Shown here piece after piece: positions 3,744-27,300 of a DNA stretch of 64,000 nucleotides. Every line of letters starts with the position of its first letter. Position 1 is the stretch's first letter. The notes beneath the pieces were generated by a model that saw nothing but the letters and a program-made list of their open reading frames with translations, was not told the origin of the DNA and ran no database searches. A program made the translations under genes and the position numbers. The DNA comes from Bacteroidota bacterium. Its GTDB lineage: Bacteria > Bacteroidota > Bacteroidia > 2-12-FULL-35-15. Location of the stretch: positions 4,951-68,950 of the forward strand of contig CANIQT010000012.1 of the NCBI GenBank assembly GCA_947469885.1. The letters run 5' to 3'.

Positions 3744-5432
3744 ATGAAAAACATTTTCTCTCCTACGCATTTTCTTTTTACATTATTCATTTTGTTTGCA
3801 AATTTTTCTTTTGCTCAATGGAACTCCAATCCATCAATAAACACGCCTGTTATAAGGGAAATAGGCAAGCAAATTGATTTACGGATGAGTGAAGACGGCA
3901 AAGGAGGTACTTTTATTTCATGGAAAGATTACCGCGCAGGCCTGCCCGACATTTACATTCAATATATGAATGCTGCTGGTGTTCGCATGTGGGACACTGC
4001 TGGTGTACCGCTCTGCACAGACCCTGCCGACCAAAGTACTCCTGCTATAACAACCGATATGGCTGGTGGTGCAATTGTTACCTTTTCTGATTGGCGCAGC
4101 GGCATTGAGCGTGATGTATATGCTCAGCGAGTTGATTCATTAGGCGTTATTCAATGGACACTAAATGGTGTTGGTATTGCTACTAAAACTGTTCGCGAAC
4201 ACAACGAAAAAATAATATCTGATGATGCTGGTGGTGCTATAATTGTTTGGGAACAACAAAGTGGTGGTCAGTGGGACATTTGGGCACAACGGGTTAATCA
4301 CAATGGAGTTACCCTTTGGACTTTTGGAGGAGTCCCTGTTTGTACGGTGAATGCAAATCGCCTGAATCCAAAAGTACAAAGAGACGGAAGAGGAGGAGCT
4401 TATATTACATGGCAGGACTATCGCAATTTCACAGATTATAATGTGTATGCCCAACGCATAAGCCCTAGCGGAAACCTACTTTGGGGTACGAATGGTATTG
4501 AAATTTGTAATGCTGTTGGTCCTCAAACCGACCCAAAAATAGACCCAGATTCAATTACTGGTGGGGTTTACATTGCATGGGTGGATGGCAGAAACCTTGG
4601 AGATTACGACATCTATGCACAAAAAATAGACTCAACAGGTACTATTCTTTGGGCAAACGATGGGGTGCCTGTTTGTAGTATTGCCGGAAATCAAACAGCA
4701 CAAGACATTCTTAGTACCACTTCCACCAATGGTTTAATTGTCACCTGGAAAGATATACGTTCTGGAAATTACGACATTTATGCACAGCGGCTTGACCAAA
4801 ATGGAGTTCCTCAATGGGCTCTAAACGGCATTGTTGTCTGCAACTCAAACAACGATCAGCTAAATCCAAATATCACTACCGACCATGCCGGAGGAGCTAT
4901 TATTTGCTGGCAAGACTCTAGTTTTGTGGATTGGGATGTGAAAAGCCAACGTATCAGTAACAGCGGTACTGCCCAATGGACGCCAAACGGAGTAAGTGTT
5001 TGCACAGCTGTAAACAATCAAACAAGCCCAAAAAATGTTTCTGACGGACATGGAGGTTCTATCTTTGCATGGCAAGATAAACGAAACGGAGGCATTCAGG
5101 ACATCTATTGCCACCACCTTTTTTCAGATGGTTCTACCAATATGGGGATTAGTGAAAATTCATTGAATGAGGGGATTTCTGTTTCTCCAAACCCTTTTAC
5201 CAACAACTTTACACTCACGATTAACCTGACAACCGATGAAAAAACAAATTTCACTATGACGGATGTGTTGGGACAACAAGTACCTATAACCATTTACGGT
5301 GCATCTGTTCAAACAAAGGGAAAACACGTTATTAATTTCACCACCGACAAAGCTGAACTACCAAAAGGGGTGTATTTTATTAGTATGATTGGAAACAATT
5401 GGATAAAAACCATTAAGGTGGTGAAGTCATAA
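3744..5432 (+). CDS. T9SS type-A C-terminal-domain secreted protein with about 8 tandem ~52-aa beta-propeller-like repeats (D-I/V-Y-A-Q-R motif)
   Basis: There is a signal peptide (MKNIFSPTHFLFTLFILFANFSFAQ). A repeated unit GGAxIxWxDxRxGxxDIYAQRxxxxGxxxWxxNGVxVC occurs about 8 times. The C-terminus SVSPNPFTNNFTLTINL...GVYFISMIGNNWIKTIKVVKS matches a Por-secretion sorting domain. Confidence 0.75.
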   Translation: MKNIFSPTHFLFTLFILFANFSFAQWNSNPSINTPVIREIGKQIDLRMSEDGKGGTFISWKDYRAGLPDIYIQYMNAAGVRMWDTAGVPLCTDPADQSTPAITTDMAGGAIVTFSDWRSGIERDVYAQRVDSLGVIQWTLNGVGIATKTVREHNEKIISDDAGGAIIVWEQQSGGQWDIWAQRVNHNGVTLWTFGGVPVCTVNANRLNPKVQRDGRGGAYITWQDYRNFTDYNVYAQRISPSGNLLWGTNGIEICNAVGPQTDPKIDPDSITGGVYIAWVDGRNLGDYDIYAQKIDSTGTILWANDGVPVCSIAGNQTAQDILSTTSTNGLIVTWKDIRSGNYDIYAQRLDQNGVPQWALNGIVVCNSNNDQLNPNITTDHAGGAIICWQDSSFVDWDVKSQRISNSGTAQWTPNGVSVCTAVNNQTSPKNVSDGHGGSIFAWQDKRNGGIQDIYCHHLFSDGSTNMGISENSLNEGISVSPNPFTNNFTLTINLTTDEKTNFTMTDVLGQQVPITIYGASVQTKGKHVINFTTDKAELPKGVYFISMIGNNWIKTIKVVKS

Positions 5433-6135: not shown

Positions 6136-6393
6136 CTATTGTTTTATCACCGTTTGAGAGTGAATTACATTTGAATCAACATCCAGTAATCTTACAAAGT
6201 ACATTCCGTCTCTGTATTGTTCAATGTTTGTTTTCATCGTAGTAGTTCCACTCAACACCTGATGTCTTTCATGTATCACTATGTTGCCAAGCACATCATA
6301 CACCTCAACCACCACATCCATATCTTTTTCAGAAGTTACGTCAATTGTAAATTCAGAAGTAGCAGGATTTGGATAAATATCGGTGAAAGTAGC
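6136..6393 (-). other. T9SS type-A C-terminal sorting domain of the giant protein (last ~85 aa)
   Basis: The motif YPNPATSEFTIDV...VEVYDVLGNIV...GMYFVRL...VIKQ. It is paralogous to the C-termini of the 33127..36138 and 3744..5432 proteins. Confidence 0.7.
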
Positions 6394-9300
6394 ACTCGAT
6401 TCAACTTCATTATTCATTGCATTAGGATCTAAACATCTTGTGATGGTTTTTTGGCTTGCCGCAGTAGTAGTACAACCGTTTGAAGCAGTAACCTTCAATA
6501 ATGAAGTCGCTGTGGTGACACCAACACTAGGAGCAATATTCACAATTATAGTGCTGTTACCTTGTTGTGAGCCATTGATGAAAGATTGACCTGTAGCTAA
6601 AGTCCAAGTGTATGTGTGGTTTGCAACAGCTGTAACAGAATAAGTAGCTGTTGTCATACCGCAGGTGTTAGCAGGACCCGTTATAGTGCCAGGTGCAGTT
6701 GAAGTTATTATCAAGTTCAATGTTCTTGCAGTTGGAGAATTTCCACAAGAGTTCACAGCATATACTGAAATACTTCCTGCTGTGGTACCAGACAAGTTAA
6801 CTGTTACAGAAGTTCCTGTGTTAGAACCTGTAATTGTTCCTGCACCTGTAATTGACCATAGATAACTAGTTGCACCAGCTACAGGAGGAGCAGAATAAGT
6901 TGCTGTAGTCATACCGCATACATTAGCCGGTCCTGAAATTGACGCTGGTGGTGACGCAGGTGCTGCTCCTGTTACTGCCAATGTAGCAGCAGGTCCTGGG
7001 AATGAACATGCGTTATTTGCAGTTACTTTCACAGTTCCTGAAACAAACGAAGTGTTGTACTGAGCAACAATTGAAGTTGTTCCTTGTCCACTTACTATGG
7101 TCATACCAGCAGGCACTGTCCAAGTGTAAGCCCCATTAGCTCCGTTAGCAGCTGCACCAACAGTAGTTGTAGTAGAATAAGTTACCTGTGTTCCAATCAT
7201 TCCACACAAAGAAGCTGGTCCTTGAACTGGTGTTGGAGTAGCTGGTGATTTAGATACCCCTATTGAAGCAGTTCCACTGTTACCACAATTGTTAGATGCG
7301 GTGCAAGTCACATTTCCAGAAACAGTTCCTGAGAAGGTAACTGTAATAGAAGTAGTTCCTTGACCTATACCACTCAATGTCATTCCGGTTGAACCAGCAG
7401 ACAATGCCCAAGTATAATTGGTTGCTAGTGGTACCGCAGCAACTGAATATGTTGCGCTACTCAAACCGCAAACTACTGACAATCCTGAAATCACAGGGGT
7501 TGCTGGTATTGCGCCAACCGTTGTGTTCACAACAAGTGGTGCACTTGTACATCCACCACCGTTAGCAACTATTGTGTATTGAACCACACCATAAACGTTT
7601 CCAGAATTAGATAAGACATCCTGAATAGTTGTTCCGCAGTTGCTTGCACAATTTGTGCTACCCAACACTCCTCCAGCAGTTACCAATGAAGTCCAAGTAA
7701 ATGTACTTCCTGATACTGTTGAATTGAGAGAAAGCTGAACGTTAGCTCCATTACAGATAACTCCTGTTCCAGGACCTGTTGCTGTTACAACAGGCGTAGG
7801 GGTTACAGTTACATTTTGAGTAGCTGTAGCAGTGTTACCACTTCCATCAGTTACTGTCCATGTTACTACTGTTGTTCCCACAGGATAAGTAGATGACGGA
7901 TGGTTATTGGTTACCGTATAAGTACAGTTGTCATTAGCTACCGGAGTACCTAATACAACTGGTAAACCATTACAAACCGTTACCGCTGTTGGTGCTGTGA
8001 TAGTTGGTAATTCTGCATCATTAACAGTAATGTTGAATGAGCAAGATGCCACACCACAACCATTTGTTGCAGTTAACGAAACTGTTGTCGTTCCTCTATT
8101 AAATGCAGTACCACTGGCGTTTCCGCTTCCACTTCCTGTAGTTGCACCACTTAATACATAAGTGATGGTTGGAGTGGTTCCACTAGTTGCACTTGAATAG
8201 GTAACCACACTGCTGCAAAGACCCGTTGCAGTGTTTGCATTTATAGTAGCAGGACAGTTAGTGAACAACGGAACCGTACAGTTAGATTCAAAGGTAGCAC
8301 TGATGGTATGAGTAGTGGTTACATTTGTAAATGTATAAGTTCCCGAAGCAATTGCTCCTGAGTTAGAAACTCCATCCACCAATACATCAAGAATATGGAA
8401 TCCTGGATTGGCAGTAATAACATAGATTTGACTTGTTCCTGAACAAGTTGCTGTTGTTCCATTAGGAGTGATACTTCCATTAGCACCTGCCGAAGCAACC
8501 ATGTTAAAGTATGGCAACACTGTTACGTTTTGAGTAGCCGTTGCAGTATTTCCATTTGCATCTTCTGCTGTCCAAGTCACCACCGTGGTACCTACACCAA
8601 ATGTTGCAGGAGCATCACTGCTGTAAGTAACTGTGCCGCAGTTATCACTTCCAGATGGTGTTCCTAACACAACAACTGTTGCGGCTCCTCCACAAACTGT
8701 TATTGAAGCCGGCGCAGAAACTAAAGGCAATTCATCATCAGTAACGGTTATGTCCTGATGACAAGTTGAAGTATTTCCAGCAACATCTGTCACGGTCCAA
8801 TTTACAGTGGTAGTTCCCACCGGATAAGTTCCGCTGGCATCGTCTGTATTTGTATAATCATTGATAACAGTAGCACCTGCAACATTGTCTCCGAATACTG
8901 GGGTTGTTACACTAACAACAGCATTACAAGCTCCCACATCAGCAGTCTGACCTTGAGAACCAGAACAGGTTATGGTAGGTGATTCGTCATCTGTTACAGT
9001 GATATCCTGATGGCAAGTTGATGTATTTCCATTTGCATCCGTTACTTCCCAATTTACAGTTGTTGTTCCTACAGGATAGTTACCACTTGCATCATTTGTA
9101 TTTGTATAATCGTTAGTAATGGTTGCACCAGTGCAATTGTCACCAAAAATTGGTGCCGTAACTGTTACCGCAGCAGTATTTGTTCCTGCATCCGCTGTTT
9201 GAGTTTGTGAACCCGAACAAGTTATTGAAGGGAATTCATCATCTGTCACTTGAACATCCTGATGACAAGATACGGTGTTACCATCAAAGTCGGTTACTGT

Positions 9301-12300
9301 CCATTCTATGGTAGTTATACCTACAGGATAAATTCCGCTTGCATCATCTGTACCTGTTATATTATTAACAATATAAACTCCAGGAGAGTTATCTCCGAAA
9401 ACAGGTGTAGTTACCACAACTGCTGTTTCACACAAGCCTGCATCTGCACTCAGTGTTATAGTTCCATCACAAGCAATAGTAGGCATTTCTCCATCTGTTA
9501 CCGAAATGTCCTGATGACAGGTAGTTGTATTTCCATGTACATCGGTAACCGTCCATTCAATAGTTGTTGTTCCAACAGGATACACGTCAGTTGCATCGTT
9601 TGTACCATTATAACTATTAGCTATTGTAACGGCAGTACAGTTGTCTGAGAAAGTTGGAGTTACCACTGATACAAAGGCTGAACTCTGTCCTGGGTCATTT
9701 ACCTGAGTCTGTGCAACGGCACATACAATCATCGGCAATTGATCATCTGTAACAGTAATATCCTGATGACAGGTAGATGAATTTCCATATCCATCTAATA
9801 CCGTCCATGTCAAGGTAGTTGTTCCAACAGGATATATATCACTTGCATCATTTGTATTATTATAATCGTTAGTGATAGTTAAGCCAGTACAATTATCAGC
9901 TGTTTGAGGAGTTGAAATCGAAACAAAAGCTTCACACATATCCAATTCTGCAGTCTGAAATTGTTCAGAAGGACAAACAATTGTTGGCAACTCATCATCT
10001 GTAACTGTAATGTCCTGATGGCAGGTAGCGGAGTTTCCGTTTCCATCCTCAACCGTCCAAATAATAGTAGTAGTTCCAACTGGATAAACATCACTTGCAT
10101 CTGCTGTATTATTATAATCATTCGAAATTGTTGAACCAGTACAATTATCTGCAATACTTGGCGGAATCACAATTACAAACGAAGAACACTGATTCAAATC
10201 TGCAGTCTGAAATTGTTCAGGAGCACAAGTTATCAGAGGCAACTCATCATCTGTTATTACAATATCCTGGTGGCAGGTTGCGGAATTGCCATGATCATCA
10301 ATTGCAGTCCAAATTACAGTAGTAGTACCAACAGGATAAATACCACTTGCATCTGTACTATTATTATAGTCGTTTGTAAGTGTTGATCCAGAACAGTTAT
10401 CTGTAAACGAAGGAGGGGTTACTGTAATAAAACCGGTACACTGATGTAAATCAGCAGTGTGAGTTTGTTCAGGCGCACAGGTGATGATTGGTAATTCGTC
10501 ATCCGTAACAACAATGTCTTGATGACAAGTTGCAGAGTTTCCATGTCCATCCGTCACGGTCCATATTACGGTTGTTGTTCCAACAGGATACGTATCACTT
10601 GCATCCGGTGAATTATTGTAATCATTTGATATGGTAGATCCGGTACAATTGTCTGAGAAGGTAGGCTGAACAACCGTTACAAAAGTAGTACATTGACTTA
10701 AATCTGCCGTTTCATCCTGCTCAGGTGCACAAGTTATTAAAGGCAATTCATCGTCCGTTATTACAACATCCTGATGACAAGTTACACTGTTTCCGCTTCC
10801 GTCAGTTACTGTCCATATAATTGTAGTTGTCCCAACAGGATAAACATCACTTGCGTCTGCTGTAAAATTATAATCATTTGAAATTGATGCCCCTGGTGAG
10901 TTATCGGAGAAAGCCGGAGGAAACACCGTTACATAACTTGAACACTGTCCTAAATTCGCTGATTGTGTTTGAGAAAGCGAACAAGTAATAATTGGATCCT
11001 GAGTATCTGAAACGGTAACTACTTGCGTTCCTGTTGATGCATTACCACATGCATCGGTTGCTGTCCAAGTTACTGTTGTTGTTCCAACTGGATAAGGACC
11101 TTGAGGATCGTAAGTAATTGTTACAGCCGAACCAATATCAGTCCCGGTTGCTGTTCCAATTGGCTCTGTTGAAGTACCATTCCCTGTGTTTTCCTGAATT
11201 ACGATAGCAGGTGGAACTGTAATAACCGGAGCAATATTGTCTATAATTTTAAATTCAGCATAGGTAGAATTTGAGTAATTACCAGCTTGGTCATATACCT
11301 GGAATCCAACTAAACCACTTCGACCTGTAGTACCGCATTGATTTATCCAGTTGGCAGAGTTATAATCATTTACCCAATAATTATCAAGATGTAAAGCATC
11401 AGTACAATTGTCTGTTGCATCTGCATCTGCCCAATTGGTAATCAACCAATCATAAAACTCATTTACGTTTCCTGCACCGTCAGATTGTACTGTCATATTC
11501 TGCGCTGGCACAGTTATTACTGGAGCTTCTGTATCGTTTATTGTAATATCAAAATCACTTGTAACTGTTCCGCAGAGATTGGTAGCAGAAATGGTGACAG
11601 TGGTGATTCCCAAGCTAAAGAAAGTTCCAGAATTTTCTGAATAAGTAACTGAGGGCGAAGGAATACCTGCAATTGAAGCAGAATAATTAACTATTGCTCC
11701 ACAAACATGTAAATCATTACCAACTGTTATCGGAGAAGGAGGTGTTATTACTGGCATAGTACAATTCAATGCAAATGTCGCATTAATGGTATGGTCTGCA
11801 GATACGTTTATGAATGTATAAGTGTAACTACTTAAACCAATAGCAGCATTAACGGTCACCCCATCCACACTCAAATCATCAATGTGATAATTCGAATTTG
11901 CATTAATTGCATAAGGTGCGTCAGTTCCGTGACATACACCATTATTAGCTCCACTTGGCGAAATAGTTCCATTTGCAGCAGCCGAAGCATTAATGGTAAA
12001 GTTTCTTGGAATAGTCACCGCCACATCCACTGTACTTAATGAAGGACAAGCAGAAGGCTCAGTTGAATTTGAACCTACTGTATATATCACTACCTCGTCA
12101 GTCGTTCCCGAATTGGTTAAAAAGTCAGTAATTGCATTCCCGCATGCACCAGCGCAATCCAACGGTCCATTCACATTGGTAGAATAATTCGGATCCACTG
12201 TCCAGTTAAAGTCAGGGTTACCAGCTGCTGTGATAGAAATATTTGCATTTGTACCACTGCAAACAACGGCAGTAGGAGACACAACTGGGTCAGCTGGTGT

Positions 12301-15300
12301 AATACCTAATGTTGCATGGTGTGTTATCGGTGCTCCAGCACAACCCAATAATCCTATTGTTGAAACAGGAGTAATGATGTATGTTACTGTAGCGTCAGTA
12401 GAACCATTATTAACCAAAGGCTGATTAGTAGTATTTATTTGGTTACCACAACCTGACGTACATGCGCTCCATCCTGTTAAACTAGGAGAAGAGGAAGATG
12501 CTGTCCAAGTGTAAGTAGTACCCGGAGCAGATGCATTAAGCAATGTTACTGGTGCATCACCCGGACAATAGGTTATATCACTAACGTTAAGACCTGGTCT
12601 TGGATTTACAAGCACTGTTCTTGTCAAGGCAGCTCCCGTACATCCGTTCGAAGTTGGTGTTACAGTATATGTAATTGTTTGTTGTGTTGTCACACCATTA
12701 TTACTTGTTACTGTATTATTTAAAGTAGAACTATTTTGTGTAATCAAACTCTCCCCGGTTGTATTAGCATTATTTGCCGCAACCCATGTAAATGTTGAAG
12801 CAATATTTGCTGTTAAAGGAACACTGATTGCGGAACCACTACAAACTGTTGCCATTGGAGTAACATTGGTTACCGTTGGTTTTGGTTTTACGGTTACCGT
12901 TACTGTAAATGGAGTACCTGCACACACATCTGGGCTAGGACTTATAGGAGTCACCGTGTAAACCACATCCTGATTTGTAATCACACCTGTATTTAATGCA
13001 AGTGTATTGGTAATAGTACCAAGGGTTTGATTACTTGTACTTTCTCCGGTTACGTTTGTATTATCAGCCGCCACCCAACTCCAAGTTCCCCCTGGAATTG
13101 AAGAGTTAAGTGCAACAGATGTAGTGGCTCCAGTACATATACTAGCTGTAGTAGCAGTAGTTCCATTGGTAGCTATTGGTTTAATAGTTACCGGAACAGT
13201 TCCCGAAGCATGACAACCGCTACTTGCAGTAGCTGTTACCGTATAAGTGGTAGGCGATGTAATGTTCGATCCTGTTACACTTGGTCCTGTAGTTACACCG
13301 CCAAGGAATGTAACCGGAAGCCAGGAGTAAGTAACTGCAGGGGCTACACCACCTGTTACTGTAATAGTAAAGTCGATTGTAACACCTGAAGTGATGGCAC
13401 TAATACTCGAAACACCTGCTATAGCGTTTGCTGTGATATCCGTATTTCTTATTCTCAAACGGTGATTACCGTTAGGACAAGATGCCGGAATGGTAAGAGC
13501 TGTTACTAATGGATTAACTCCAACAGAACTAGTACATAAAAGTTCAGAAGCATCTTCAAAACTACCATTGTCGTTCATATCAATCCAAACCTTGTAAGAG
13601 TCATTAATGTTAGACTGAACCGAAACAGATGTTGCTGAGTTAGCTGCAAAAGTTCCAACAGTAGTTGTTCTGTTCAAATATCCCGGACTAACAGTAGGAG
13701 TTCCATTGGTATAAGCGAACCCTAAACCTGTAAAATTGGTTATTTCATGGCCTGTACTACCACCATTAGATGATACCGGAGTAGTATAAACTGGAGCTGC
13801 CGCTACACCTGCCGCAAGCACCGAACTGGTGTTGTTACAAATAGAAGCAGGAGTTGCAGTTACATAATTCAAGGTAATACCGGCTGCAACAGTGCTGATA
13901 GTTATTTGCGGAGAAGTAACACTACATCCAAATTCAGTAACAATTACAGAATAAGCTCCTGTAGAACTAGGCGAGAAAGTAGAAGATGTTGCTCCGCCTA
14001 TATTACTTGCTCCAAGTTTCCATTGATATGTTGGTGAACCTGTTGTAGTCGCATCCAAAGGAGCACCTACACCCGAACAGAATGTTGTGTTGTTTGGAGA
14101 TGTAATAACTGCAACTGGAGCATTCGCTGTTGTAATAGGACTTGTTGATGATGAACAGTTTGTTCCACAAGCATCCGTAATACTGCAAGCATAAGTATGT
14201 GTACCCAATCCTGAGTTTATAGTTGCTGTATTACCACCAAATGCTAATCCATCCTGAGTCCATACATAAGTATATGGTGTATTGCCTCCTGTAGGATGAG
14301 CAGTAACCGTTTGAACTCCAAGACAAGTGCTTACACCACCAATTGTCAACGCGCCACATGTTACAGGAGTAGCTCCCGCAACAGTAACCGTTTGAACCGC
14401 ACAAGCACCTGCTGATGTAGCAGTTACAGAATACGTATTTACCGGCAAGTTTGGAGGTGTTACTCCAGTTGGGTTTTGCAATGACGAACTAAAACTATTT
14501 GGTCCTGTCCAAGCATAGGTTGCCACTGGTGGAGTACCTGTTACAGAAACATTATCTACTGCAGGATTTGCAAATGGAGTAACTCCATTACTCTTGAAAG
14601 TAAATACTATCCGAACTGTTGTACCAGCAACACCACTCAATGGAATAGATTGTAAGGTATAGTTAGCAATAGCAGTAGAAGTATTAGTATATACCTGCGT
14701 AAACCCTCCCCCAGGTAATGTTGCTGTTGTATTATAAACAGGGGTATTAGAAGGTGTTGTCGTATAAACATAAAAAATGTCATTATTCGGATCAACAGTT
14801 GGCATTTTATAGTAGAAACTTAAATTCACATTGGTGTAATCAGCTGGAACAACAACATCCCTGTAAAAATGCCCAACACTGTTTGCTGTATTGTTACCAT
14901 TGTAATTATTATTTGTTTCACTGCCCTCATAAGCGGCATAAGTACCTCCCTGAACGCCAGGAGCAGTATTAACACCCCATTGTCTATTTACCGCACCCTG
15001 TGCTTCACTCCAACCACTCGCAGCCAAACCAACTGTGCCACCTTCAAAACCACCGTTTGTGGTAGGATCCAGTAATGTAGGACTCAATGTAGAAACACTT
15101 GCCAACAAATTAATAGTTCCCCCTGCACAAATAGCAGGTGGATTCGAACTAGCTGTTACACCAGAAAGGAAAGGACTCAACGTTACCGTAGCCGTTACCG
15201 GTGTTGCAGGGCAACCTCCGTTGCTTGCATTAATAGTAAATGGCACAGCTGTAGAGGTTCCGTTTGATGTAGTAAAGTTACCACTTATAGTTGTAGCAGT

Positions 15301-18300
15301 TCCACTTGCAGCCGCTGTTGTAGTTATTCCAGATGGGCTTGTTCTTGTCCAAGAGAAAGTAGCACCAGAAGGTGTACTTGTCAGAACAAATGGAGTCATA
15401 CTAGCACCAGAACAAATGGTTTGAGACAATGATGGACTCACATTGATGGTTGGAATGGCGATGAACGACAACGTATTATTAGAAGTAGAACCACAGGTAG
15501 TATTCAAAGAAACAGCAACATTGTTTCCTGATACACTTGCATTTGGAACTACTGTAATAATTGAATTACTGATAATGGTAAGTCCTGTAGTTGCCAATCC
15601 TCCAATGGTTACACTTGTGGTTGTACCTAAGTTGGTACCGTTAATTTGAACAGGAGCACCCGGACAACCCGCATTGAAGCTGGAAATACTTGGTGGTGTA
15701 CTGTTCACATTCACTGCCACCGTACCCGTATTCGTACATCCGTTAGAAGATGTAGTTGTTGTTACCGTATAAGTAGTAGTAGATGAAATACCAGTTACTG
15801 TAGGATTTTGTAAAGTGGATGTTCCACCCAAGAAGGTAGTCGGACTCCAACTGTATCCTAACGTGGCTGCACCTGTAACGGATAACGCAATTGACGAGTT
15901 ACCAGTAGCACAAAGTGTAGCAGGTGTAGCTGTTATCGAATTGATAGTTACACCCGGTAACGGAGTTATAAGCTTGGTTGCTGTTGCAGTACATGAATTA
16001 GCATCTGTAACTGTAGCTGTATAGGTAGTTGCTGAAGAAGGCGTTGCCGTTACGGCTTGTCCAAATGTCGGAGTTAAGCCGGAAGTTGGCAACCAAGAAT
16101 AATTAAGTGTACCTGTTCCTCCGCTTCCTGTAACGTTAAACGAAGCAGAACTTCCTGGAGAACAGAACTGACCGTTTGAAGGTGCTGTTATCAAAGAAAT
16201 GGATGGACTAGGGTTCACATTTACAGTAACCGAAACCCTTGTTGGGTTAGGACAGGTTGCTGTATTTGCTTCTGCCCAATATGTGGTAGTTGTGGTTGGA
16301 GACACAGAGAAATTAGCCCCTGTAGCCGAAGAACCCACCAATGTTCCACCAGTTTGCTGAGTCCACCATTTAATAGTAGAGCCGGTAGAAGAAGTAGCAT
16401 TCAGATTAGCTGAAGTACCAGAACAGATAGTGGTAGGTAAAGCAGTAACACTTGTTGGAGTTAAAGCGCCCGGCAACACTGTTTGATTTACATTGGTTGC
16501 CGTAAGTGGGCTACATCCGTTTAATGATGGAGTAACTTTGTATCTTACCGTTCCGTTTGCTGCTGTAGGATTATTTAATGTCTGAGCAATAGAGGTACCA
16601 CAACTTGACGAACAATTACTATAACCTACCACACTTCCCGCAGAAGTAAGTAATTGTGTTGTCCAAGTAAAGGAAGCACCGGAAGGAGTACTGCTTAAGT
16701 TAATCGCAGTAGTATTTCCACCGCAAAAAGCAGTAGGAGCTGACGGAGAAATGGTTACACTTGGCACCGTATTCACGTTTACTGCTATTGTAGCGGATGG
16801 ACCTGAGCATCCTGCACCGAAATAAGGAGTAACTACATAATTTACAACACCAGTACCTGTTAAGGTTTGAGCTATTGAAGTAACGTTAGCTAGACTTGAA
16901 TTACTGAAACCTGTTGTGGTACCCGAAGCAAGCGATGCTGTCCATTGATAAGTGGCACCTGCAGGAGTACTTGTTAAAGCAATATTACTTACCTGCCCAC
17001 TGCAAGCCTGTTGAGGAGAAGTAGTAGCCACATTTGGTATTACCGGTGAAGTAACAGTAATTGTATAAGGAGAACCAACACAGTTGTTCAAGGTAGGAGT
17101 AACAATGTATTGAATTGTTCCCGCACCACCCAACAATTGTTGAATTGCCGAACCACAAGAACCTGCACACGCACTGTACCCAGTTGAAGTACCGGTAACC
17201 GTACCAATAGTCCACGTAAACGTAGAGTTAGCAGGTGCAGTAGTTAATAATATATTTGAAGTTGCGTTGTTACAAGCACCCACAGCACTTGGAGTAGTCA
17301 TCACAGGAGTTGGTTTTAATGTAGCACTACCATTCATGGTAACGGTACAACTTCCAGATGTAGTTTTAACAGTATAAACTCCAGGAGCACTTTGAACACC
17401 AAAAGAAATTGGAGAACCAGTTCCTGGTAAAGAAGCTCCTGTAGCCACACCATCTAAATATAAATCATAGGTTAAACCGGATTGAGAGCCATTTAAACCT
17501 AATGAGAAATTGCCAGCGGCTGAACAATCAGAACCAGAAGTAGTGATAGAGAAAGCTGTAGGCGAAGGTGATACTACCACAAAGAACGAACAAGTTGAAG
17601 TATTACCTGAAGCATCTGAAGCTATAAATGTATTGGTAGTTGTTCCAACCGGGAAAGAAGACCCGGAAGGTAAACCTGTAGTTTGAACAATGGTTGGGAA
17701 AGTAAGATTCCATGTAATTACCACCTGGCCATTACCTGAAGGATTAAATCCTGCTACATTATTCTGATTTGTACCTGAATTATAGGAACCTCCTCCTCCA
17801 CCATTGGTAGGATTATTCCACGAGGCACCACCACCAGAATATCCACCACCACCACCACCAGCAGTGTTTCCACCGCCTCCGCCACCACCAAATCCACCAT
17901 TACCGGTTGCAGTACAAACAATACCTCCTGTAGCACCATTGACAAAACCGTACCCATAAGTATTAGGGCAGCAACTGGCGTTTGCTTGTCCATTAGACAA
18001 TAAACCTCCTCCATTACCACCGCAAGCACCTCCACCTCCGCTGAAAGTGGTCGCTCCATTACCATTTATACCACCCAAACCATAATTAGCAGGGGTACCT
18101 CCCAAGCCGCTGTATCCATTGACACCAGACGTAGTAGTAACTGCATCCGCACCAACAGGTGTATAAGCATTGGTACTTACTGCAATTCCGCCACCACCTC
18201 CGGCAACAATTAAAGGGGTATTAGTACTTGTGGTAACAAATGAACCACCACCACCACCACCGCCTGAACTGGTAGCCCCATCAGCACCAACTCCTCCAAC

Positions 18301-21300
18301 GAGTACTTTAAGTACCTGACCTGGAGTAACTGCAATATCTCCTTGCATTTTTGCTCCTTTTCCCCCTGCCGGAGTAAATCCAGTGGTAATTCCACCATTC
18401 GCACCAATTGCAGTTATGTTCACAGAATTAACACCTGGAGGAACCGTGAAATTAACTATTCCACCTGTATAATTAAATGTTTGACTTCCTCCACCTGTTG
18501 AAACACAGTTATCACTAACTGTAGGAGTAGCAAATGTTACTGTTGAAAAATTGCAATTTGTATTTGTCGGGAATGCATTAATAGTAGAAGGGCATCCTGA
18601 AATAGTAGGTGCTGTTGCATCATTAACCGTTACTGTAAATACAGCTTGTGTACTACAAACTCCAGTAACTGAAGTTACTGTTACTGTTGTAACACCATTG
18701 TTGAATACAGAACCTGAACCTGTACCGTTTCCACTAGCAATAGTAGCACCTGTTAACGCATAAGTAACCGTACCTGCACTAAAAGTACACGTATAAGTAA
18801 CTGTAGCATCGCAACTGTTCGAATTCGTATTTGCAGTTAAATTGCCTGGATTAGCTGTAACAGTAGGACCAGAACCGCTAAATATAAAGGTTTGACTTCC
18901 GGTACCTGTTCCTGAACCGGTAACAACGGTAATCACTCCTGAAGTACCTGTACCTACCACTGCAGTAATTTGAGTAGCAGAGTTAACAACATAAGATGCC
19001 GCATTGGTACCTCCAAATTTAACTGAAGTTGCATTAATAAAATTAGTTCCTGTGATTATAACAGTTGTATTAGAGCATGCTGAGGTAGGACTGATATTTG
19101 TAACAGTTGGCGCACCCGGACAAGCTGTAGTGGTCACCGAAACAGGACCTACCCATGAACCATGAGTAAATGCAGCACAATTAGAACGAACATATACCTC
19201 TCTAGTTGAATTACAAGGCAATCCAGTTAATACATAATTAACATTTGAACTCGTTGTTAAGATTGTACCTGTACCTGCTGTATGACCCACTGCACCAAAT
19301 TCAACATCCCAAGAAGTTTCAGTACAACCCGCAGCCCAGTTTACGACTGCGTCAAACTGACCAGGAGAAGTAACCGCTAAAGCGGTTGGGATAGGGCAAG
19401 AAGTTGGTGCAGCTATAGTTACTAAATAATCTTCTACTTCTCCAAATGTAGTAGTTGCGCATGGGTCTATTGTTGACCCATTTGCTAAACCGAAAATACA
19501 TCTTACTCTCAACCTGTGCTGACCAACCGGAGGATTACAAGCTAAAGTAACGGGGAATCCAACTGTTGAATTAGCTGGAACAGTAGTAAGAGAATATCCG
19601 ATTCTCTCAGCTGAGGAGAAAGACCCATCGTCATTATAATCTATCCAAGCAGCATAATTTTCGGAAAACGATGATGTTGAAACATTGACTGTATAGGAAG
19701 TGCTCGCCTGAAGAGTACATGTAAAATTTGCACCCAATGCTCCAAAATTAGTATAATCATTATAACCGGAAACTCCTGCAGGACAACCAAGACCGCTAAC
19801 ATTATTTAAAGTAGTGCCTGGAATCTGAACCTGTCCAATAACATCGTTATCGGTGCATCCGAATGTAACGTAAAGATTCGAAGTACAATAGCAAGTCTGA
19901 ACATTATTCATTACCACTTGTGTTGGAGTGGAAGTACCCACATTACCCTGACAGGTAACCAAACATTGGTAATAAGTTGCAACAGATTGCGTAGTTACAT
20001 AAGTAGCCGAAGTAGCACCTGAAATATTAACAAAATTAGAGTTGGTAGGTGACGATTGCCACTGATATGTTAAGCCACCACCGACAGGAGGGGTTGACAA
20101 AGAAAGTGTTAATGAACTAGCCGGACAAACACTTGCAAGCGAAGCTAAAGTAGTTCCCGGTGAAGGAGTACCAACACAAGGTGTAGCTATCGTAGTTACA
20201 GAAGAAGATGCTCCTGGTATATAATAACAATTAGTTATTGAGTTATAATCATAAATAGTAAATGTATAAGATGTTAACTGAGTTAAACCAGTTACATTAA
20301 CTGTATTGTTATAACCATCATACACCACAAAATTACCTCCACCTAAATTACTACCAGCACCAAAAACAGAGCTTGCTGAATAGGTCAACCCACCAATTGG
20401 GTCAACAGCAGTGGTAGAAGTTAAACGAGCAACCACAATTTCTCCGGCAGTCCCGTTACCTTGAATCCAGTTAACTGTAATACCTGTTCCGGTAGTGTTA
20501 TCTGTATATGGTTGAGAAATAGCATTAGCAGAAGGGGCAGAAATGGTAACTGTAGCACCTGTACCACATGTATTAAACCCAGCACAGTTTTCGTAATTTG
20601 CATAATAAGTAGTAGTAGCAGCAGGTCCGTTTAGTCCTGATAACGTAAGCGGACTTCCTGTTCCAACCAACGTTCCACCATTACCTGTACCACATCCTCC
20701 GTTATACCATTTAATCACAGCACCAACACCCGGTGTTCCACCCGATGCAGTTAATGTTACGGTTGGGAATGGAGTACATGATAATGCAATGTTAGAAGAA
20801 GCATTAGTAGTTCCTGTTGACAAGGTAGCCACAGGAATAGTAGTAGTGCTGCTAGGAGCACCCGCACAGCTTCCTGCCACATTAGCTGTAACAGTATAGT
20901 TTTGTGGCGGTGTAATGATTCCGGTTGTTTGAGTTTCGTTTACAGAAGGAGCAGGAGCATTAGAACCTGACCAAGTGTATGTATAATAATTGGATGTAGT
21001 AGAAACTGGAGCACCTACGGAAGTCAAAGGGAAAGCTCCTGTTTTTGAATCCGCAAGTATATTGCTCGAATTCATTTTATAATAGGCTACTAAATTGCTA
21101 AAATTAGGGTGACTTGCCGTTACTTCCCTATTCATCCAGCTTTGAATATCTGCATTTGTTAAGGCTGAATTCCAAACTCTGAATTCGTCAACCTGACCAT
21201 TAAAATACGCACCGCTACCCATATTGGTTCCATCGTTACTACCGATAGCATAATATAAAAGACCGGTATTAGGATTTTGTCTTGGACCTCCGGCTGTTGA

Positions 21301-24300
21301 GGTACCAGACGGTACTCCATTTAACAATCCATCCAACGTACCTCCATTGTATCTTATTACAACATGATTCCAAGTGCCAAAAGAAACTGTTCCGATTTGA
21401 AGAGCAGTCATTGACCAAACCCGAACCATCACTTGTCCGGAAGCAAGCACCTCTATCTGGCTATCGTGCCAACCTGAATTAACAGGAAGATTTCCCTGTT
21501 CAGATACTATAACTCCGGGACCTACTGCCTTGAACCAGATTTCAAGAGTTGTGTTAGCTATTGCCGCATTAGGTAAATTGGGTGTAAGTAAATAATCTGT
21601 TGTCCCATTTAAAGTAACGCCACCACCAGCAGGAGCTAAACCACTTGCAGTTAAAGTAGCGGTACCGTTAGCACACATTGAACCGCTATTAGCAACCACA
21701 GCTGCAGCTGGTGTAGGAAGTATTGAGAATGCAGTGGTTGCTGTTGAAGTAACAGAGCATGCCCCGTTGCTAACCACTACATCATAAATAGCACCCGATT
21801 CAGACAATCCAGGATTAGTAATTGTTAATGTAGCAGAAGTAGCACCGGAATATGGAGCAACATTCGATAAATTAGTTCCATTTTTTCTCCATTGATAACC
21901 TGTAACAGTTCCTGTTGCAGTAACAGAAATAGTTCTGGTTCCGTTACTAACGCAAACAGGTGCAGGAGATACCGGTTGAACGGTAATAACAGGAGTGTTT
22001 ACTGTAACTGTAACCGGAGGACGTGTTGTAGAAGCGCATCCTGAGATATTCCACGAAATAACAACCTGTCCGTTTCCGGTTTGAGCACCTGCAGTGTTAA
22101 CCTGGTTAGTTCCGGAATTGTAGGAACCACCGCCACCACCACCGGTATAAGGTTGAGTACCGGAAGTACTACCACCGGAGTATCCACCTCCACCTCCACC
22201 TTGTCCACCTGTCGACCAACCGCAACCTCCGCCACCAAAACCACCTATTGAAGTACCATTATTGGCACCTGTACCGCCATTCACATAAGCAAGTGGATTT
22301 GCAGACCCACCTGATCCATTTGTTAAAAATCCTGCTCCACCACTTCCGCTTCCAGTAACATTGGTTCCACCATTACCTGCGGTTCCACCAGCAACTAATC
22401 CGTTTCCGCTGGCTGTTCCAGATGTGGTTATTGAGGCATTTAATCCGTCTAACTGACCCGCACCACATGTTGCAATATTATTAGAGGCACCGCCTCCGCC
22501 TCCGGCAATTATTAAAGGTGTGTTTCCTGAAGCAACAACGAATGAGCCACCGCCTCCGCCACCTTCAGAACCATTTGTTAAGCCCTGCTGACCAACAAGT
22601 ACAGACAGTATCTGCCCCGGAGTTACCGCAAAAGTACCCTGCATACTTGCTCCTAAACCACCTGTGTGAGGACAAGTAGTAGTTACGGAGCCACCTTGAG
22701 CTCCTTTGGCAAGAATTGTTACAGTTGAAACACCAACAGGAACTGTAAATGTACTTATTGAACCTGTGTAATTAAAAGTTTGAGAACCCACCGCTCCGTT
22801 ATTTGCTTCCGCATAATAAGTAGTGGTTACAGCTGGTGTAACACCAAAATTGGCTGCCGAAGCGGAAGTACCTAATAGGGTACCATTTGTAGCAGCGTTG
22901 TACCAGAAAATAGAACTTCCTGCAGAAGTAGCATTAAGATTAGCTGCTCCGTTTGCACACACCGAAGTTGGAGTAGCTGTAACCGGTGAAGGAGCTGCAG
23001 GAACTGTATTTACAGTTAATATTCTTGCAGTTGAAGTAACAGTACAAGTTGTTCCATTACCAACCACACAAGTTAAAGAAGCATTATTCTCAGCTGCTGA
23101 AGGGTTTGTAATGGTTAAAGTACTAGTATTAACACCACTATAAGGTGCTGTGTTGGTTAAAGGAGTTACACCTTTATACCATTGATAAGTAGTGGCATTG
23201 GTGGCAGTAACACTTAAAGTTGCTATTCCGGCACCACAAATAGGAGCAGGCGTTACAGGTTGTACTGTAATTGCAGGATAAGTATTAACGTTAACGGTAA
23301 GTGGCACACGAGTAGAAGCACATCCAAGCACATTCCAAGTAATTACAACTTGACCGTTACCAGCATTATTTCCAGCAGTATTAACTTGCGAAGTTCCACC
23401 GTTGTAAGAACCACCTGCATTTCCAATAGTATTAACAGCTACACCCCATCCACTACCTCCGCTATATCCACCACCACTACCAGCTTGCTGATTACAACTT
23501 CCTACATAATTAGCAGCTGTTCCTCCACCAAACCCACCGGTTTGGTAAGAAGCAGCATAAAGTGCAGCAGGAGCACCTCCGGCACCACCTTGTCTGAAAC
23601 CTGCACCTCCAAAGAAACCATAAAGCACGTCATTTCCACCCGAAGTGTAGAAACCACCACCACCACCAACACAACTCATTGCAGGAGCTCCGTTTCCACC
23701 TGTTCCTGGGTTTGTTCCGGTACCCGAGGTTGTAAAAGGAGCACCAGTTCCTGTTGCACCACTATAAGCACCACCACCTCCACCAGCAACAATCAAAGGA
23801 TTTGCTGTTGCGAAACTTGCACCATCTGCAACAAAGGTTCCTCCACCTCCGGCTGGATACAATGTAGTAAGACCTGGACTTTGACCAACTAATATAGAAA
23901 GAACCTGACCTGGTGTAACCGCAAATGTTCCTTGCATGGTTGCTCCATTACCTGCTGTTGAACCAGATGTAAAACCTCCTGATGCTCCTTTAGCAGTTAT
24001 ATTTAATGAGGTTACAGTAGCAGGTACTGTAAAATTAACTATTGAACCTGTATAATTGATAGTCTGAGAACCTGATCCGCCATTGTTTGCCTCAACATAA
24101 TAAGTTGTGTTTACTGTTGGCGTTACAGGAAAATTAGCTGCAGATGCAGAACTTCCATACAATGTTCCGCCAACTGATTGGCTATACCAGTTAATGGTAT
24201 TACCCGTTGATATAGCAGAAAGATTAGCAGTACCACCTGTACAAAGTGATGAAGGATTTGAAGAAACTCCTGATGGAGGAAGCGGAGCTGATGATACCGT

Positions 24301-27300
24301 TACATCCACATTCACCGGGTTGCCCGGACAAACTGCCGAAGCAGGAGTAACCACATATCTTACTACACCTGAAGACCCTGAATTGTTGGTTAATGTTTGA
24401 GCTATTGTTGAACCACTTGACGGAGTAAATCCTGTGATAGTTCCTCCCGAAATTTGAGAAACTGTCCATGAATAGGTGGTGCCTCCGGTTAATGCAATAT
24501 TAGTGGGGATACCACTACATAAAGCTTGAGAAGAAGGAGTAGCTGTTGCAACAGGCGCTGCTTGTAAGGTTACGGTAATTGTTTTAACAGTACCCGGACA
24601 AGAAGCCCCAAAATAAGGTGTAACATTGTATTGAACAGTGCTGCCATTAGCACCTGTTAAAGTTTGACCAATAGTACTATTGCAAGACGTAGCACAAGCA
24701 CTTGCACCTGAAACACCACTAATTGTACCAAGTGTCCATGTATAAGTTGCTCCCGCAGGAGAACTAGCTAATGGAATATTTGCCACCTGACCCGCACATG
24801 CTGGTTGAGCAGCTGCTGTGGTGATTGTTGGAGGGGTACTTACTGTAACGGTAATGGGATAAACAGAACCAGTACATCCGTTAAGGACAGGTGTAACACT
24901 GTAAACAGCGGTTCCACCTAATCCTACAAGCGTGTTGGCAATAGTACTTCCACTTCCGGAAGTTCCACCCGTTACTCCTGTCATCACTGGTGCAGGCCAA
25001 CTAAAGGTTGCTGCCCCTGAAGGGTTGGTTGTTAAAACAATGTTTGAAAGTACATTATTACACGAACCTGCACTGCTTGGTGTTGTTACCACAGGAGTAG
25101 CAAATAAAGTTACATTGCCTGACATTGTAGTAATACATGCTCCTGATGTTGCTTTTACGGTATAAACTCCTGCAACTGTTTGTGTACCGAAAGTGATGGC
25201 ACCTCCTGTTCCTGCTACAGTTGAGCCGCCAACAAGAATTCCATCCTTATATAAATCATAGTTTACACCTGATTGAGAGCCACTAAGGTTGACAACAAAG
25301 TTTGCTGCCGCAGTACAAGTTGAACCTGTTTGAGTAACATTAAATGCTGTTTGGGTTGCTACCGTAACTGTAAAAGATTGGGAGGTAACATTACCCGCAG
25401 CATCAGTTGCTGTAAATGTATTGGTAGTGGTTCCTAAAGGATAGTTAACACCTGATGCCAAACCTGCTGATTGAGTAGGGGCAATAGATGGTGTCAAACC
25501 ATTCCAGGTAATTACGATTTGTCCATTTCCTGTGTTCCCAATAGAGTTACTTTGAGCAGTACCTCCATTATAAGAACCTCCTCCATAACCAACATATGCC
25601 AGACCACCACTGTTCATACCACTGCCGCCACTATATCCTCCACCAGCTCCCGCTTCCATGTTACATGAACCATAGTAATTTGGAGAAGCTCCTCCTCCAA
25701 ATCCACCAGTTGAGTAATTTGTTCCACCACTTCCTCCGGCTCCTCCCTGCTGAAATCCTGCTCCCCCGGTAGCTATAAAACTAGGTGATGTTAAGTTGTC
25801 ATTACCACCAGAAGTATAATAACCTCCTGCACCACCTCCGCAAGAGGTTGTAGGCGCACCATTTCCATTTGTACCCGGTGCTGGTCCGTTACCACTTGTG
25901 GTTAGAGATGCATTACCACCAAGACCTGAAACAGAACCACCACCGCCTCCGGCAACTATCATTGGTGTTGCCGTGGTATTTGAAGCCCCTAATCCCACAA
26001 AAGTTCCGCCACCTCCGGCAGCAAAACTATAATTGTTTGGTGGCTGTTGCCCAACCAAGTAAGACAATACCTGTCCGGGAGTTACCGTAAATGTACCAGT
26101 CATGATTGCTCCCAAACCACCTGTTCCTCCATTCGACCCACCCTGTGCACCTTTGGCTGTTATATTTATTGACGTTACACCGTTAGGAACCGTGAATGTT
26201 CCGATTGATCCTGTATAATTAAATGTCTGGCTTCCAACCACTAAAAAACCACAATTATCTGTAGTAGTAGGAGCGGTATAAGCTACCACTTTTCCATTAC
26301 AAGTTGCATTATCTGCAACAACAGTAATATTAGCAGGCACATTCACTACTGGTGCTGTAACATCGTTTACAGTAACTGTAAACGAAATATTGGCTGTACA
26401 CCCCCCAAAGGTTGCACTTAGAGCAACAGTAGTAACACCTCTGTTAAAAGTAGAGCCCGAGCCATTGCCGGAACCGCTACCAGTTGTTGCACCAGTAAAC
26501 ACATAAGAAAGACTACCCTGTGTGGTAGTAGCAGTATAATTAACTACTGCCTGGCAGGAATTGTTTGCAGCCGCTGTTTGAGGACCTGGATTAGAAATAA
26601 CAGGACCATTAACCGTTACAGCAGAAGATGTTCTTGTTAAAGAAGTACAACCTACAACATTAGGCCATGAAATTATTACTTGACCATTACCAGAACGAAC
26701 ACCACCTTGAGCAAGTAATGTTGATCCATTAATAATGGAACCACCTCCTCCACCAACACCATAATAGGTACCACCTCCACCACCGGAATAGCCACCTCCG
26801 CCTCCGCCTCCTGTCCAGCTTGACCATTCTCCGGCACCTCCGCCACCAAATCCTCCATTACCTGCACCAACTGAAATACCTCCTGCACCTCCATTTGTAA
26901 ATGACCTGCCTCCTGTGCTGGCAGCTATACAATCAGAGCCATTTCCGGTAAGACCACCACCACCTGCACCTTCAGATTGACCAACATAGGCAGGAGCACA
27001 TCCTCCACCTGATCCAGCTGCTCCTCCCACTCCTCCTGTAGTACTTAAATTGGCATAAATACCGGCATTACCCGCTGTAGCGGTAGAACCATTACTATTA
27101 GCAGCAGAATAAGCGCCACCTGAATAATAACCACCGCCACCGCCTCCGGCAACAACTAAAGCCGCATTTGCATTGGTGGTTACAAACGAACCACCTCCGC
27201 CACCACCTTGATTGCCGGAACCACCTTGGCCCCCAACCAGTATTTTTAAAATATCTCCGCCATTAACAGAAACTGTACCCTGCATTCTAGCACCCAATCC

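Follow-up and report, generated by a model that had tools for sequence, protein, structure and literature searches.

Metazoan proteins such as sea-urchin hyalin carry HYR domains (Pfam PF02494) in tandem, there in a eukaryotic extracellular-matrix context unlike that of the bacterial array described here. For hyalin, work quoted second-hand reports that a cell-surface receptor recognises it through the HYR modules (cited in PMC3723904). Among bacteria, HycP of Clostridium (Ruminiclostridium) cellulolyticum encompasses 23 HYR modules and a CBM3, and its mutant showed neither an adhesion nor a growth phenotype (PMC3723904). HycP resembles the present case as a secreted bacterial protein that consists mostly of HYR modules in a long tandem array and has its binding module apart from them, whereas it differs in its Firmicute origin, in an N-terminal anchor or signal without a type IX secretion system (T9SS), in modules of about 75 aa and in the C-terminal position of its binding module, the CBM3. 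To our knowledge, no function has been established by experiment for bacterial HYR arrays, HycP being the one studied case, and no literature joining type IX secretion with HYR domains was found.

The extenders of giant RTX adhesins, such as the Aeromonas hydrophila tetra-tandem repeat (6xi1), are likewise tandem Ig-like beta-sandwiches with short linkers, which form a rod projecting ligand-binding domains. However, no sequence relationship between these extenders and the array was detectable, and RTX adhesins are T1SS substrates, anchored by the N-terminus and stiffened by Ca2+, while the protein described here has a T9SS C-terminal domain (CTD) at its C-terminus, where an RTX/T1SS signal is absent. 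Periscope proteins (Rib, SasG, Sgo_0707 SHIRT arrays) are similarly surface-anchored, with tandem small structured domains acting as a stalk, and are recognised by a repeat identity of at least 80%, adjacent SHIRT domains being 82–100% identical (PMC8201768). In addition, Bacteroidota multi-HYR proteins annotated as 'HYR domain-containing' or 'gliding motility-associated-like' (P0001, P0004, P0009 and P0026) have, like the array, an 84-aa four-cysteine unit with the motif D-x-E-x-P-x-I-x-C ... C ... D-N-C ... Y-P-V-G-T-T ... G-N ... C; they carry 9–14 tandem units, are 43–58% identical to the array across all nine of its strict units, and possess T9SS CTDs and a similar adjacent-unit identity. 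Most of the listed Bacteroidota matches differ in having a type B (CHU_C, PF13585) sorting domain instead of type A, and most do not exceed about 1,300 aa or are partial, whereas the array here forms a single module within a protein of 7,744 aa, with the limit that the homologue search listed only proteins of up to ~1,322 aa, without the 7,744-aa protein itself, and giant orthologues may escape it. The array also has its own invariant C-H-Q-D motif after the last cysteine (C77) of the unit.

Array layout and host protein

The array is located on the minus strand within a single ORF of 7,744 aa (6136..29370) that encodes a giant multi-domain surface protein, in a window (the whole stretch of DNA analysed) of 64 kb. 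The array domains are HYR domains: a family HMM built from 1,493 homologous units identified 13 contiguous HYR-like units (aa 5870–6951, 8518–11763), in agreement with the about 13 head-to-tail HYR domains of an earlier sequence-only reading, and Pfam HYR PF02494 matched the C-terminal third of the ORF in 12 stretches with 276.6 bits (E=7.3e-84), the gathering threshold being 21.7 bits and the strict unit U11 reaching 44.4 bits on its own. Nine strict, in-register units (U3–U11, 8740..11007, minus strand), each of exactly 84 aa or 252 bp and joined by a D-D-E-x-P linker of about five residues, and four divergent units make up the array, so that the mixture of strict and divergent units proposed earlier was recovered with other counts than eleven and 2–3, the figure of eleven probably reflecting the 11 copies of a 62-nt conserved core that recurs at 63–77% identity. 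Base identity at an offset of 252 was 0.674 against ~0.32 at other offsets, far above chance, which replaces the previously proposed period of ~249 bp.

The four divergent units, all on the minus strand, differ in their degree of conservation. The first unit of the array (aa 5870–5944, 11539..11763) is HYR-like by the family HMM (E=4.7e-10) and has no Pfam match; it reaches partly beyond position 11600, so that the extent of 8450–11600 given earlier does contain the array but stops ~160 bp short of its end at 11763. The next unit (aa 5946–6043, 98 aa, 11242..11535) is a weak HYR-like or Ig-like unit with insertions (family HMM E=1.3e-4), which opens with a DTEAPVITVP motif and shows only a weak Big_3_2 match in Pfam, and the two flanking units at 11242–11535 and 11536–11793 both miss the Pfam HYR threshold. 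U2 (78 aa, 11008..11241; Pfam HYR 28.3 bits) lacks C9, C22 and C77, and the last unit, U12, has 75 aa (8515..8739; 34.7 bits). Downstream, a spacer domain of about 80 aa (8281..8514, minus strand) with a weak Flg_new_2 (InlB B-repeat-like) match below cutoff (E=0.0019) connects the array to two more HYR-like units at aa 7031–7116 and 7118–7189 (7804..8280, minus strand), with Pfam scores of 16.3 bits (sub-threshold) and 33.8 bits (scored on 7771–8019) and family HMM E-values of 1.6e-8 and 5.4e-21, respectively.

The whole protein contains 21 HYR-like units, along with Ig_7, PKD_5, PKD_6 (four domains), GEVED, Laminin_G_3 and glycine-rich ALK_LTK_GRD-like domains. An ML domain match (PF02221, E=8e-19) was set aside as the sum of weak similarities to the repeated motif, with zero significant stretches, and an Rfam scan of the whole window gave no family reaching its gathering score. 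The N-terminus, judged by eye from the translation, has a signal-peptide-like segment, MEKFTNSKKTINTITRWLICAVLLVGFTTSRLSAQ (29266..29370, minus strand), with a basic n-region, a hydrophobic core and ...LSAQ, while the extreme C-terminus (6148..6378, minus strand) matches the type A sorting domain Por_Secre_tail by PF18962 (52.1 bits, cutoff 27) and by TIGR04183 (38 bits, cutoff 23; residues 465–544 of the last 544), by which the protein is predicted to be T9SS type A cargo. Several genes adjoining the ORF also encode T9SS CTDs, and T9SS machinery genes (PorU/V, SprA, etc.) were absent from the window.

Divergence, origin and stability of the units

DNA identity across all pairs of the nine strict units ranges from 54 to 74% with a mean of 64%, and protein identity from 45 to 79% with 25 invariant positions, while adjacent units share 51–76% of residues and 59–73% of bases. 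TRF recovered only 4.6 copies at 71% matches, and a repeat search over whole units gave 60–72% identity. Within 8450–11600 no k-mer of 23 nt or more is found twice, and a single 22-mer is, so the recurring 25–30-mers and near-identical DNA repeats described by the sequence-only reading were not recovered, and the strict units fall below the ~80% identity under which that reading took its own proposal of unequal recombination to be refuted. Moreover, the same codon is used at conserved residues with a frequency of 0.52 against the 0.47–0.50 expected, which places synonymous sites at chance. The array DNA is too diverged for homologous unequal recombination today, because divergence has randomised the synonymous sites and left no present-day substrate for crossing-over; their saturation likewise leaves no dN/dS test of diversifying selection.

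These values bear directly on the possibility of a periscope-type stalk, in which RecA-mediated unequal recombination would alter the number of units and thereby tune the projection of an adhesin. Tandem duplication did build the array, U6–U8 show a slight excess of same codons (0.61–0.69 against 0.47 expected), and near-identical units do exist in other HYR proteins, such as P0007 (adjacent identity 1.00), P0002 (0.94), P0012 (0.94) and P0047 (0.93), and as one pair at 97% DNA identity on metagenome contig L080. The present units, however, with adjacent identities of 51–76% in protein and 59–73% in DNA, lie under the periscope threshold of at least 80% (PMC8201768); long exact DNA tracts that could serve as a recombination substrate are lacking between units, the longest run of 22 nt occurring once; synonymous sites are overall at chance; and the clean short-read assembly would be unexpected if the 252-bp repeats were near-identical. 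Periscope proteins also vary in repeat number by strain, and no variation was observed among three assemblies of this locus, which are near-clonal. A stalk of variable length at this locus is thus very improbable, and it would be mistaken to annotate the array as a contingency or length-variable locus.

The three assemblies are independent short-read metagenome assemblies from different samples; they contain an identical array with 0–1 mismatch over 15,432 nt, and the 7,744-aa product was called identically in independent assemblies. The source samples include ERZ27263719, ERZ28613009 and ERZ27280173, with related runs. Constant copy number among the three assemblies is weak evidence for stability, as the near-clonal assemblies represent effectively one strain. 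Repeats from metagenomic sources are error-prone in general, so that a mis-assembled or collapsed array with a meaningless unit number might be suspected; such an artefact is hardly credible in view of the agreement of the three assemblies, a reading frame that stays open over 23 kb, and the ~36% of bases that differ among units and make each unit unique to the reads. Orthologues were sought with two queries. In GTDB representative genomes, which do not include the species itself, the C-terminal 544 aa retrieved no true orthologue, seven loci representing smaller proteins with only PKD_6 and the CTD in common and 0 to 5 or more HYR units; in JGI metagenomes, the 248 aa that directly follow the array retrieved no usable orthologue, the best match (L014) being 47% identical with only two or three HYR units nearby. 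A strain at 99.7% was seen on contig L005, which ends before reaching the gene.

With regard to origin, each strict unit has its nearest relative among its siblings, and none of the 1,493 family units from elsewhere comes closer; the array therefore grew, long ago, by tandem duplication in situ of a single ancestral unit of 252 bp. A homogenising force or a strong constraint may also act on the units, because their adjacent protein identity (51–76%) exceeds that of adjacent domains in multidomain proteins, which is usually below 50% (PMC8201768). Arrays of 12–49 units on other contigs display adjacent DNA identities of 0.61–0.69, matching the array here, and the ~63% identity of the 46–49-unit arrays fits ancient amplification followed by divergence and does not fit ongoing homogenisation, a pattern to be read with the caveat that short-read assemblies under-sample near-identical arrays. 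Long arrays had been regarded as typical of eukaryotes and rare in bacteria, which does not hold: the array has matches in more than 2,000 bacterial proteins, among the best 120 of which about half carry 9–14 units, metagenome ORFs reach at least 46–49 contiguous HYR units, and HycP has 23. Long HYR arrays in bacteria are thus not a eukaryote-like oddity.

Predicted structure and role of the array

An AlphaFold2 model of the consecutive units U8–U10 was obtained with high confidence (pLDDT 95.1, pTM 0.73), and displays an all-beta fold with eight strands per 84-aa unit and short linkers, according to which the strict HYR unit is predicted to be an all-beta immunoglobulin-like module of about 80 residues. 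The best Foldseek matches of this three-unit model in the PDB were elongated tandem arrays, such as cadherin ectodomains (7sz8, E=5.6e-10) and the Aeromonas RTX adhesin extender 6xi1 (E=1.2e-9), the latter giving the best superposition, over three domains (TMq 0.47), although TM-scores of the matches ranged only from 0.26 to 0.47. The kind of matches and the short linkers suggest that the array is rod-like. A single-sequence search returned no solved HYR structure, and a profile search of solved structures went no further than weak matches to PKD, cadherin or adhesin entries, with E=6e-4 at best.

The most probable reading, to which we assign a probability of roughly 0.65, is that the array represents a fixed-length, rod-like extender of 13 Ig-like HYR domains, part of a surface protein of 7,744 aa that is exported by T9SS. 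Type A cargo of Porphyromonas gingivalis loses its C-terminal sorting domain after secretion and is attached to the outer membrane by the new C-terminus. The anchoring and orientation of the 7,744-aa protein are taken by analogy from such cargo: following export by the Bacteroidota T9SS, its sorting domain would be cut off and its new C-terminus fixed to the outer membrane. A membrane-proximal shaft would result, made of the HYR array together with the four PKD_6 domains, and this shaft would hold the N-terminal ~5,800 residues, with glycine-rich, LamG, GEVED, PKD and Ig modules as the likely binding parts, tens of nanometres off the cell. A stalk or spacer role is plausible because the array lies in the C-terminal quarter, near the expected anchored end, and its model matches rod-like tandem arrays; of the length-variable stalk proposed earlier, the stalk is thus retained, while the length variation is contradicted by the diverged DNA. 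On this reading the array is a diverged HYR stalk of the usual kind, carried by a giant T9SS-exported surface protein in an uncultured Bacteroidota, and its importance would hardly go further than correct annotation.

Alternatively, the HYR units might themselves be adhesive, each having diverged for a ligand or for several related ligands. Such a multivalent binding array would be in line with the receptor recognition reported, in the work quoted second-hand, for hyalin HYR modules (PMC3723904) and with cadherins, among the closest structural analogues, which bind via their domains, and the 25 invariant core positions with the remainder varying down to 45% identity are compatible with diversified surfaces. 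We regard it as rather unlikely, since the HycP mutant had no adhesion defect (PMC3723904) and the array adjoins the anchored end, presumably the least accessible position. We also know of no ligand for any bacterial HYR domain, which counts against it as well.

Cysteine pattern of the strict units

The strict unit has four cysteines, C9, C22, C37 and C77, which show different levels of conservation. All nine strict units retain C9 and C77, and the two co-occur over the 1,493 family units (odds ratio ~2,300, p=4e-280); they behave as an obligate pair, for which a disulfide is predicted. The inner cysteines are frequently lost, C37 in three units (DNSPG in U3 and U9, in keeping with the Cys-to-Ser replacement of DNCTG noticed earlier, and DNVAG in U11), and C22 in U8 and U10, which had gone unnoticed. 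One inner cysteine is therefore missing from five of the nine strict units against a background of 8.4% single C22 or C37 losses among the 1,493 family units (binomial p=3.9e-4), and this is the single statistically unusual feature of the array. Micro-conversion between U3 and U9 as the source of the common DNSPG was rejected, as the codons differ (TCA CCA GGG and TCT CCT GGA), which also indicates that the losses were independent.

If C22 and C37 are normally joined by a disulfide at each domain's distal pole, such losses would leave unpaired thiols on the shaft, and these orphan thiols might link adjoining molecules in a disulfide-bonded surface mesh or confer a redox-sensitive stiffness on the shaft, which we consider a long shot. 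By the strand order of the model, the loops that bear C22 and C37 would both be at the C-terminal pole of a domain, which puts the orphan cysteines of adjacent units about one domain length apart; inter-domain disulfides between them were rejected on this topology. Apart from the HYR array, a second, separate array with a 249-bp period was observed at 41776–46127 of the window.

Architecture of the giant protein and its HYR units

The region 8450-11600 lies entirely within a minus-strand ORF at 6136-29370 (7,744 residues), and its translation displays a repeat of about 84 residues, with the anchor motif Y-P-V-G-T-T occurring nine consecutive times at a spacing of exactly 84 residues. Within the C-terminal third of this giant protein, the repeats were matched by Pfam to HYR (PF02494; E=7.3e-84, 276.6 bits, 12 stretches), and the extreme protein end carries a Por_Secre_tail T9SS C-terminal sorting domain (52.1 bits), also matched by NCBIfam TIGR04183. 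The remaining protein is a Pfam mosaic of Ig_7, PKD_5, PKD_6, GEVED, Laminin_G_3 and glycine-rich modules. The ML domain (PF02221, E=8.1e-19) was also returned for the C-terminal third (6139-14370) and was rejected, with zero individually significant stretches and a summed weak match on the repeated T-C-x-Q-D region of the HYR units. Many homologs carry this accession in their precomputed Pfam annotations, so HYR arrays probably trigger it spuriously and systematically. The T9SS sorting domains indicate that the DNA comes from a member of the Bacteroidota.

Nine strict units, U3 to U11, are exactly 84 aa (252 bp) long and in register (8740-11007, minus strand), and are flanked by two shorter divergent units on the same strand, U2 (11008-11241) and U12 (8515-8739), which score above the Pfam threshold on their own (28.3 and 34.7 bits, respectively). 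Two upstream minus-strand units invisible to Pfam, at 11242-11535 (E=1.3e-4) and 11539-11763 (E=4.7e-10), were detected with a family HMM built from 1,493 homologous HYR units, by which the contiguous HYR-like units number 13 (aa 5870-6951, 8518-11763). After a spacer of ~80 aa beyond the array, two further HYR units are located at 7804-8280 (minus strand), and six more HYR-like units or half-units were recognized by the same HMM elsewhere in the giant protein, for a total of 21. The figure of about 13 units in the sequence-only reading is thus retained, but as nine strict plus four divergent units and not eleven plus two or three; the array overruns the end of the described region 8450-11600 by ~160 bp.

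The canonical unit contains four cysteines, C9, C22, C37 (in the 'DNC' motif) and C77. The DNSPG variants reported previously are present in U3 and U9, U11 reads DNVAG, and U8 and U10 lack C22 instead. Among 1,493 unique family units, the presence of C9 and C77 is coupled (odds ratio ~2,300, p=4e-280), as would be expected of a disulfide pair, and C22 and C37 are unassociated (odds ratio 1.7, p=0.12). Single-loss states form a regular minority of these units (C-CC in 92, CC-C in 33); they account for five of nine units here versus a background of 8.4% (binomial p=3.9e-4). Apart from this excess, nothing about the array is even mildly unusual.

Two other HYR domains of the giant protein seem to be split, at ~25360-26364 (minus strand, aa 1003-1337) and ~17572-18621 (minus strand, aa 3584-3933), where the N-terminal half, reaching to the 'DNCG' loop, gives way to a ~200-aa glycine-rich (ALK_LTK_GRD-like) domain before the C-terminal half resumes (HMM positions 45-83 and 33-83, respectively); the glycine-rich domain looks nested in the HYR domain's DNC loop, and PF02494 and PF12810 are also combined in one homologous protein (P0106). 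An unsupported 132-aa ORF with a TTG start (9250-9648, plus strand) runs antisense to the array; the antisense frame of this repetitive gene has few stops, and the ORF most likely arose there by chance. A 52-bp direct repeat (29429-29533; two copies, 94% matches), which may be a regulatory element, lies in A/T-rich intergenic sequence, 60-160 bp upstream of where the giant gene's coding sequence starts.

Divergence and origin of the units

Base identity reaches 0.674 at an offset of 252, compared with ~0.32 at neighbouring offsets, which sets the period at 252 bp and not ~249 bp; a separate 249-bp array at 41776-46127 may explain the latter value. The strict units share 54-74% of their DNA in pairwise comparison (mean 64%) and 45-79% of their protein sequence (mean 60%), at odds with a description as near-identical DNA repeats. 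Tandem Repeats Finder recovered just 4.6 copies with 71% matches, and whole-unit identities of 60-72% were obtained by a separate repeat search. The recurring 25-30-mers reported earlier were not recovered: no k-mer of 23 nt or longer is repeated in 8450-11600, the longest being one 22-mer that occurs twice. The recurring element is a 62-nt core coding for Y-P-V-G-T-T...W...D..G-N, present in 11 copies with 63-77% identity, and these copies are probably what had been counted as eleven strict units.

When 1,504 unique HYR units are compared, all nine strict units have their nearest relative among their siblings in the array, with no foreign unit closer, so the array originated by tandem duplication in situ, and this happened long ago. 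The same codon is used at 52.1% of shared-residue positions, against 46.7% expected from gene-wide and 50.0% from array codon usage; third bases at four-fold sites agree in 41.7% of cases versus 35.5% expected, and the mild codon-sharing excess is limited to U6-U8. The two DNSPG variants are written in different synonymous codons and thus do not form a conversion tract. With codon sharing near expectation as well, nothing points to recent duplication or gene conversion, and homologous unequal crossing-over has no substrate here. The proposal of a variable, recombining stalk, for which the DNA was considered similar enough for unequal recombination, is largely refuted, as the identities fall under the ~80% that the sequence-only reading had itself named as the lower limit.

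Occurrence of HYR arrays in bacteria and across assemblies

Of just 8,000 candidates scored against the nine-unit query, 2,098 proteins matched at E<=1e-10; almost all come from Bacteroidota or other bacteria, and 'HYR domain-containing protein' and 'gliding motility-associated-like protein' are frequent names among them. About 65 of the 120 best matches contain 9-14 units, many being partial and all ~1,322 aa or shorter. The 120 listed homologs were all <=1,322 aa and the 7,744-aa query protein, itself in the collection, was not returned; the search thus seems blind to very long proteins, and the absence of giant orthologs there is uninformative. Among 80 metagenome loci, uninterrupted ORFs hold at least 46, 47 and 49 contiguous HYR units, each truncated at a locus edge; these are loci L063, L067 and L073 (contigs Ga0163111_10000113 and Ga0163111_10000059), with adjacent DNA identity of only 0.62-0.63, and their arrays greatly exceed the present one in length. 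HycP of Clostridium cellulolyticum has 23 HYR modules, and multi-HYR proteins occur mostly in marine and freshwater bacteria according to its authors (PMC3723904). Such arrays are hence not rare in bacteria, contrary to the sequence-only reading, and the present one is a real, ordinary instance of a very common bacterial surface-protein module.

Adjacent-unit DNA identity is 0.61-0.69 in arrays of 12-49 units and 0.59-0.73 here, and the array is typical in all measured respects. Near-identical units were observed in a minority of homologs, such as proteins P0007 (1.00) and P0002, P0012 and P0047 (0.93-0.94), and in one pair of locus L080 (97% DNA); judged by these identities, recently amplified HYR arrays exist, and the studied array is not among them.

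The exact product of a neighbouring gene is present on ten contigs from several samples, and the array is covered by three independent assemblies (ERZ27263719, ERZ28613009 and ERZ27280173), whose gap-free alignments to the window span 15,432 nt and contain 0, 0 and 1 mismatch. Unit number is reproducible across them, and an assembly artefact is excluded by this concordance and by every unit being unique in sequence. The three effectively represent one strain and are thus weak evidence for an invariant unit number. No diverged ortholog was found in one-genome-per-species GTDB contigs or JGI metagenomes. The nearest related loci in the GTDB contig search are all Bacteroidota MAGs, and related proteins share the C-terminal module of PKD_6 and sorting domain and have anywhere from no HYR unit to five or more, a pattern that indicates modular shuffling, not orthology.

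Predicted structure, likely role and neighbouring genes

A confident AlphaFold2 model of U8-U10, made from 41 in-register three-unit sequences, displays an eight-strand beta module per unit (pLDDT 95.1, pTM 0.73), with ~5 residues (D-D-E-x-P) between the last strand of one unit and the first of the next. No solved structure for HYR units was found by sequence or profile search. The best fold matches are elongated tandem arrays, namely cadherin ectodomains (7sz8, E=5.6e-10) and an Aeromonas RTX-adhesin extender (6xi1, best TMq 0.47), with the T9SS grappling-hook protein GhpA of Aureispira (9fly) further down the list; TM-scores are modest (0.26-0.47), in line with differing inter-domain angles.

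Cleavage of the sorting domain in type A T9SS cargo leaves a new C-terminus, which becomes attached to the outer membrane. With such anchoring, the PKD_6 domains and HYR array would form a membrane-proximal shaft, and the N-terminal 5,800 residues would lie distally and presumably bind ligands. The giant protein fits fibrillar adhesins as defined in the literature, which are long and combine a binding region with a repetitive stalk and an anchor; it also agrees with the comment that stalks do not always consist of highly identical repeats (PMC9210967). Periscope proteins need >=80% repeat identity and repeat-number variation between strains, and the array, at 54-74% DNA identity, lies outside this subclass as so defined (PMC8201768). 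The sequence-only observation thus holds for the protein and fails for the DNA, and its stalk interpretation stays plausible, shorn of recombinogenic near-identity, length variability and rarity. The HYR units may also act as multivalent binding elements, perhaps alongside a spacer role, although the HycP mutant has no adhesion phenotype (PMC3723904) and no ligand is on record for bacterial HYR.

T9SS cargo genes are clustered in the window. A further giant repeat protein (2,445 aa; 40725-48062, minus strand) has K319L-like PKD domains (Pfam) and a type B (CHU_C) T9SS sorting domain at its end; its array at 41776-46127 comprises ~17.5 tandem copies of the 249-bp unit. Matches reach 67% at period 249 and 76% at a super-period of 498 bp, which suggests that units were duplicated two at a time. 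The C-terminal module of the first giant protein has a 1,003-aa paralog (33127-36138, minus strand) with one HYR, PKD_5, four PKD_6 and a type A sorting domain, and Por_Secre_tail is also found at 3744-5432 (plus strand). Between two T9SS cargo genes, a 1,260-aa protein (36208-39990, minus strand) consists almost wholly of collagen triple-helix G-X-Y repeats (Pfam Collagen E=1.3e-129, 11 stretches) and accounts for many 9/18/27-bp Tandem Repeats Finder rows. About 100 bp upstream of the ORF at 62401-63078, a 21-bp tandem repeat (62146-62302; ~7.5 copies, 82% matches) without an Rfam match carries in each unit a palindromic core, TTCCGGGAA, with an A-run after it, and resembles a series of putative protein-binding sites.
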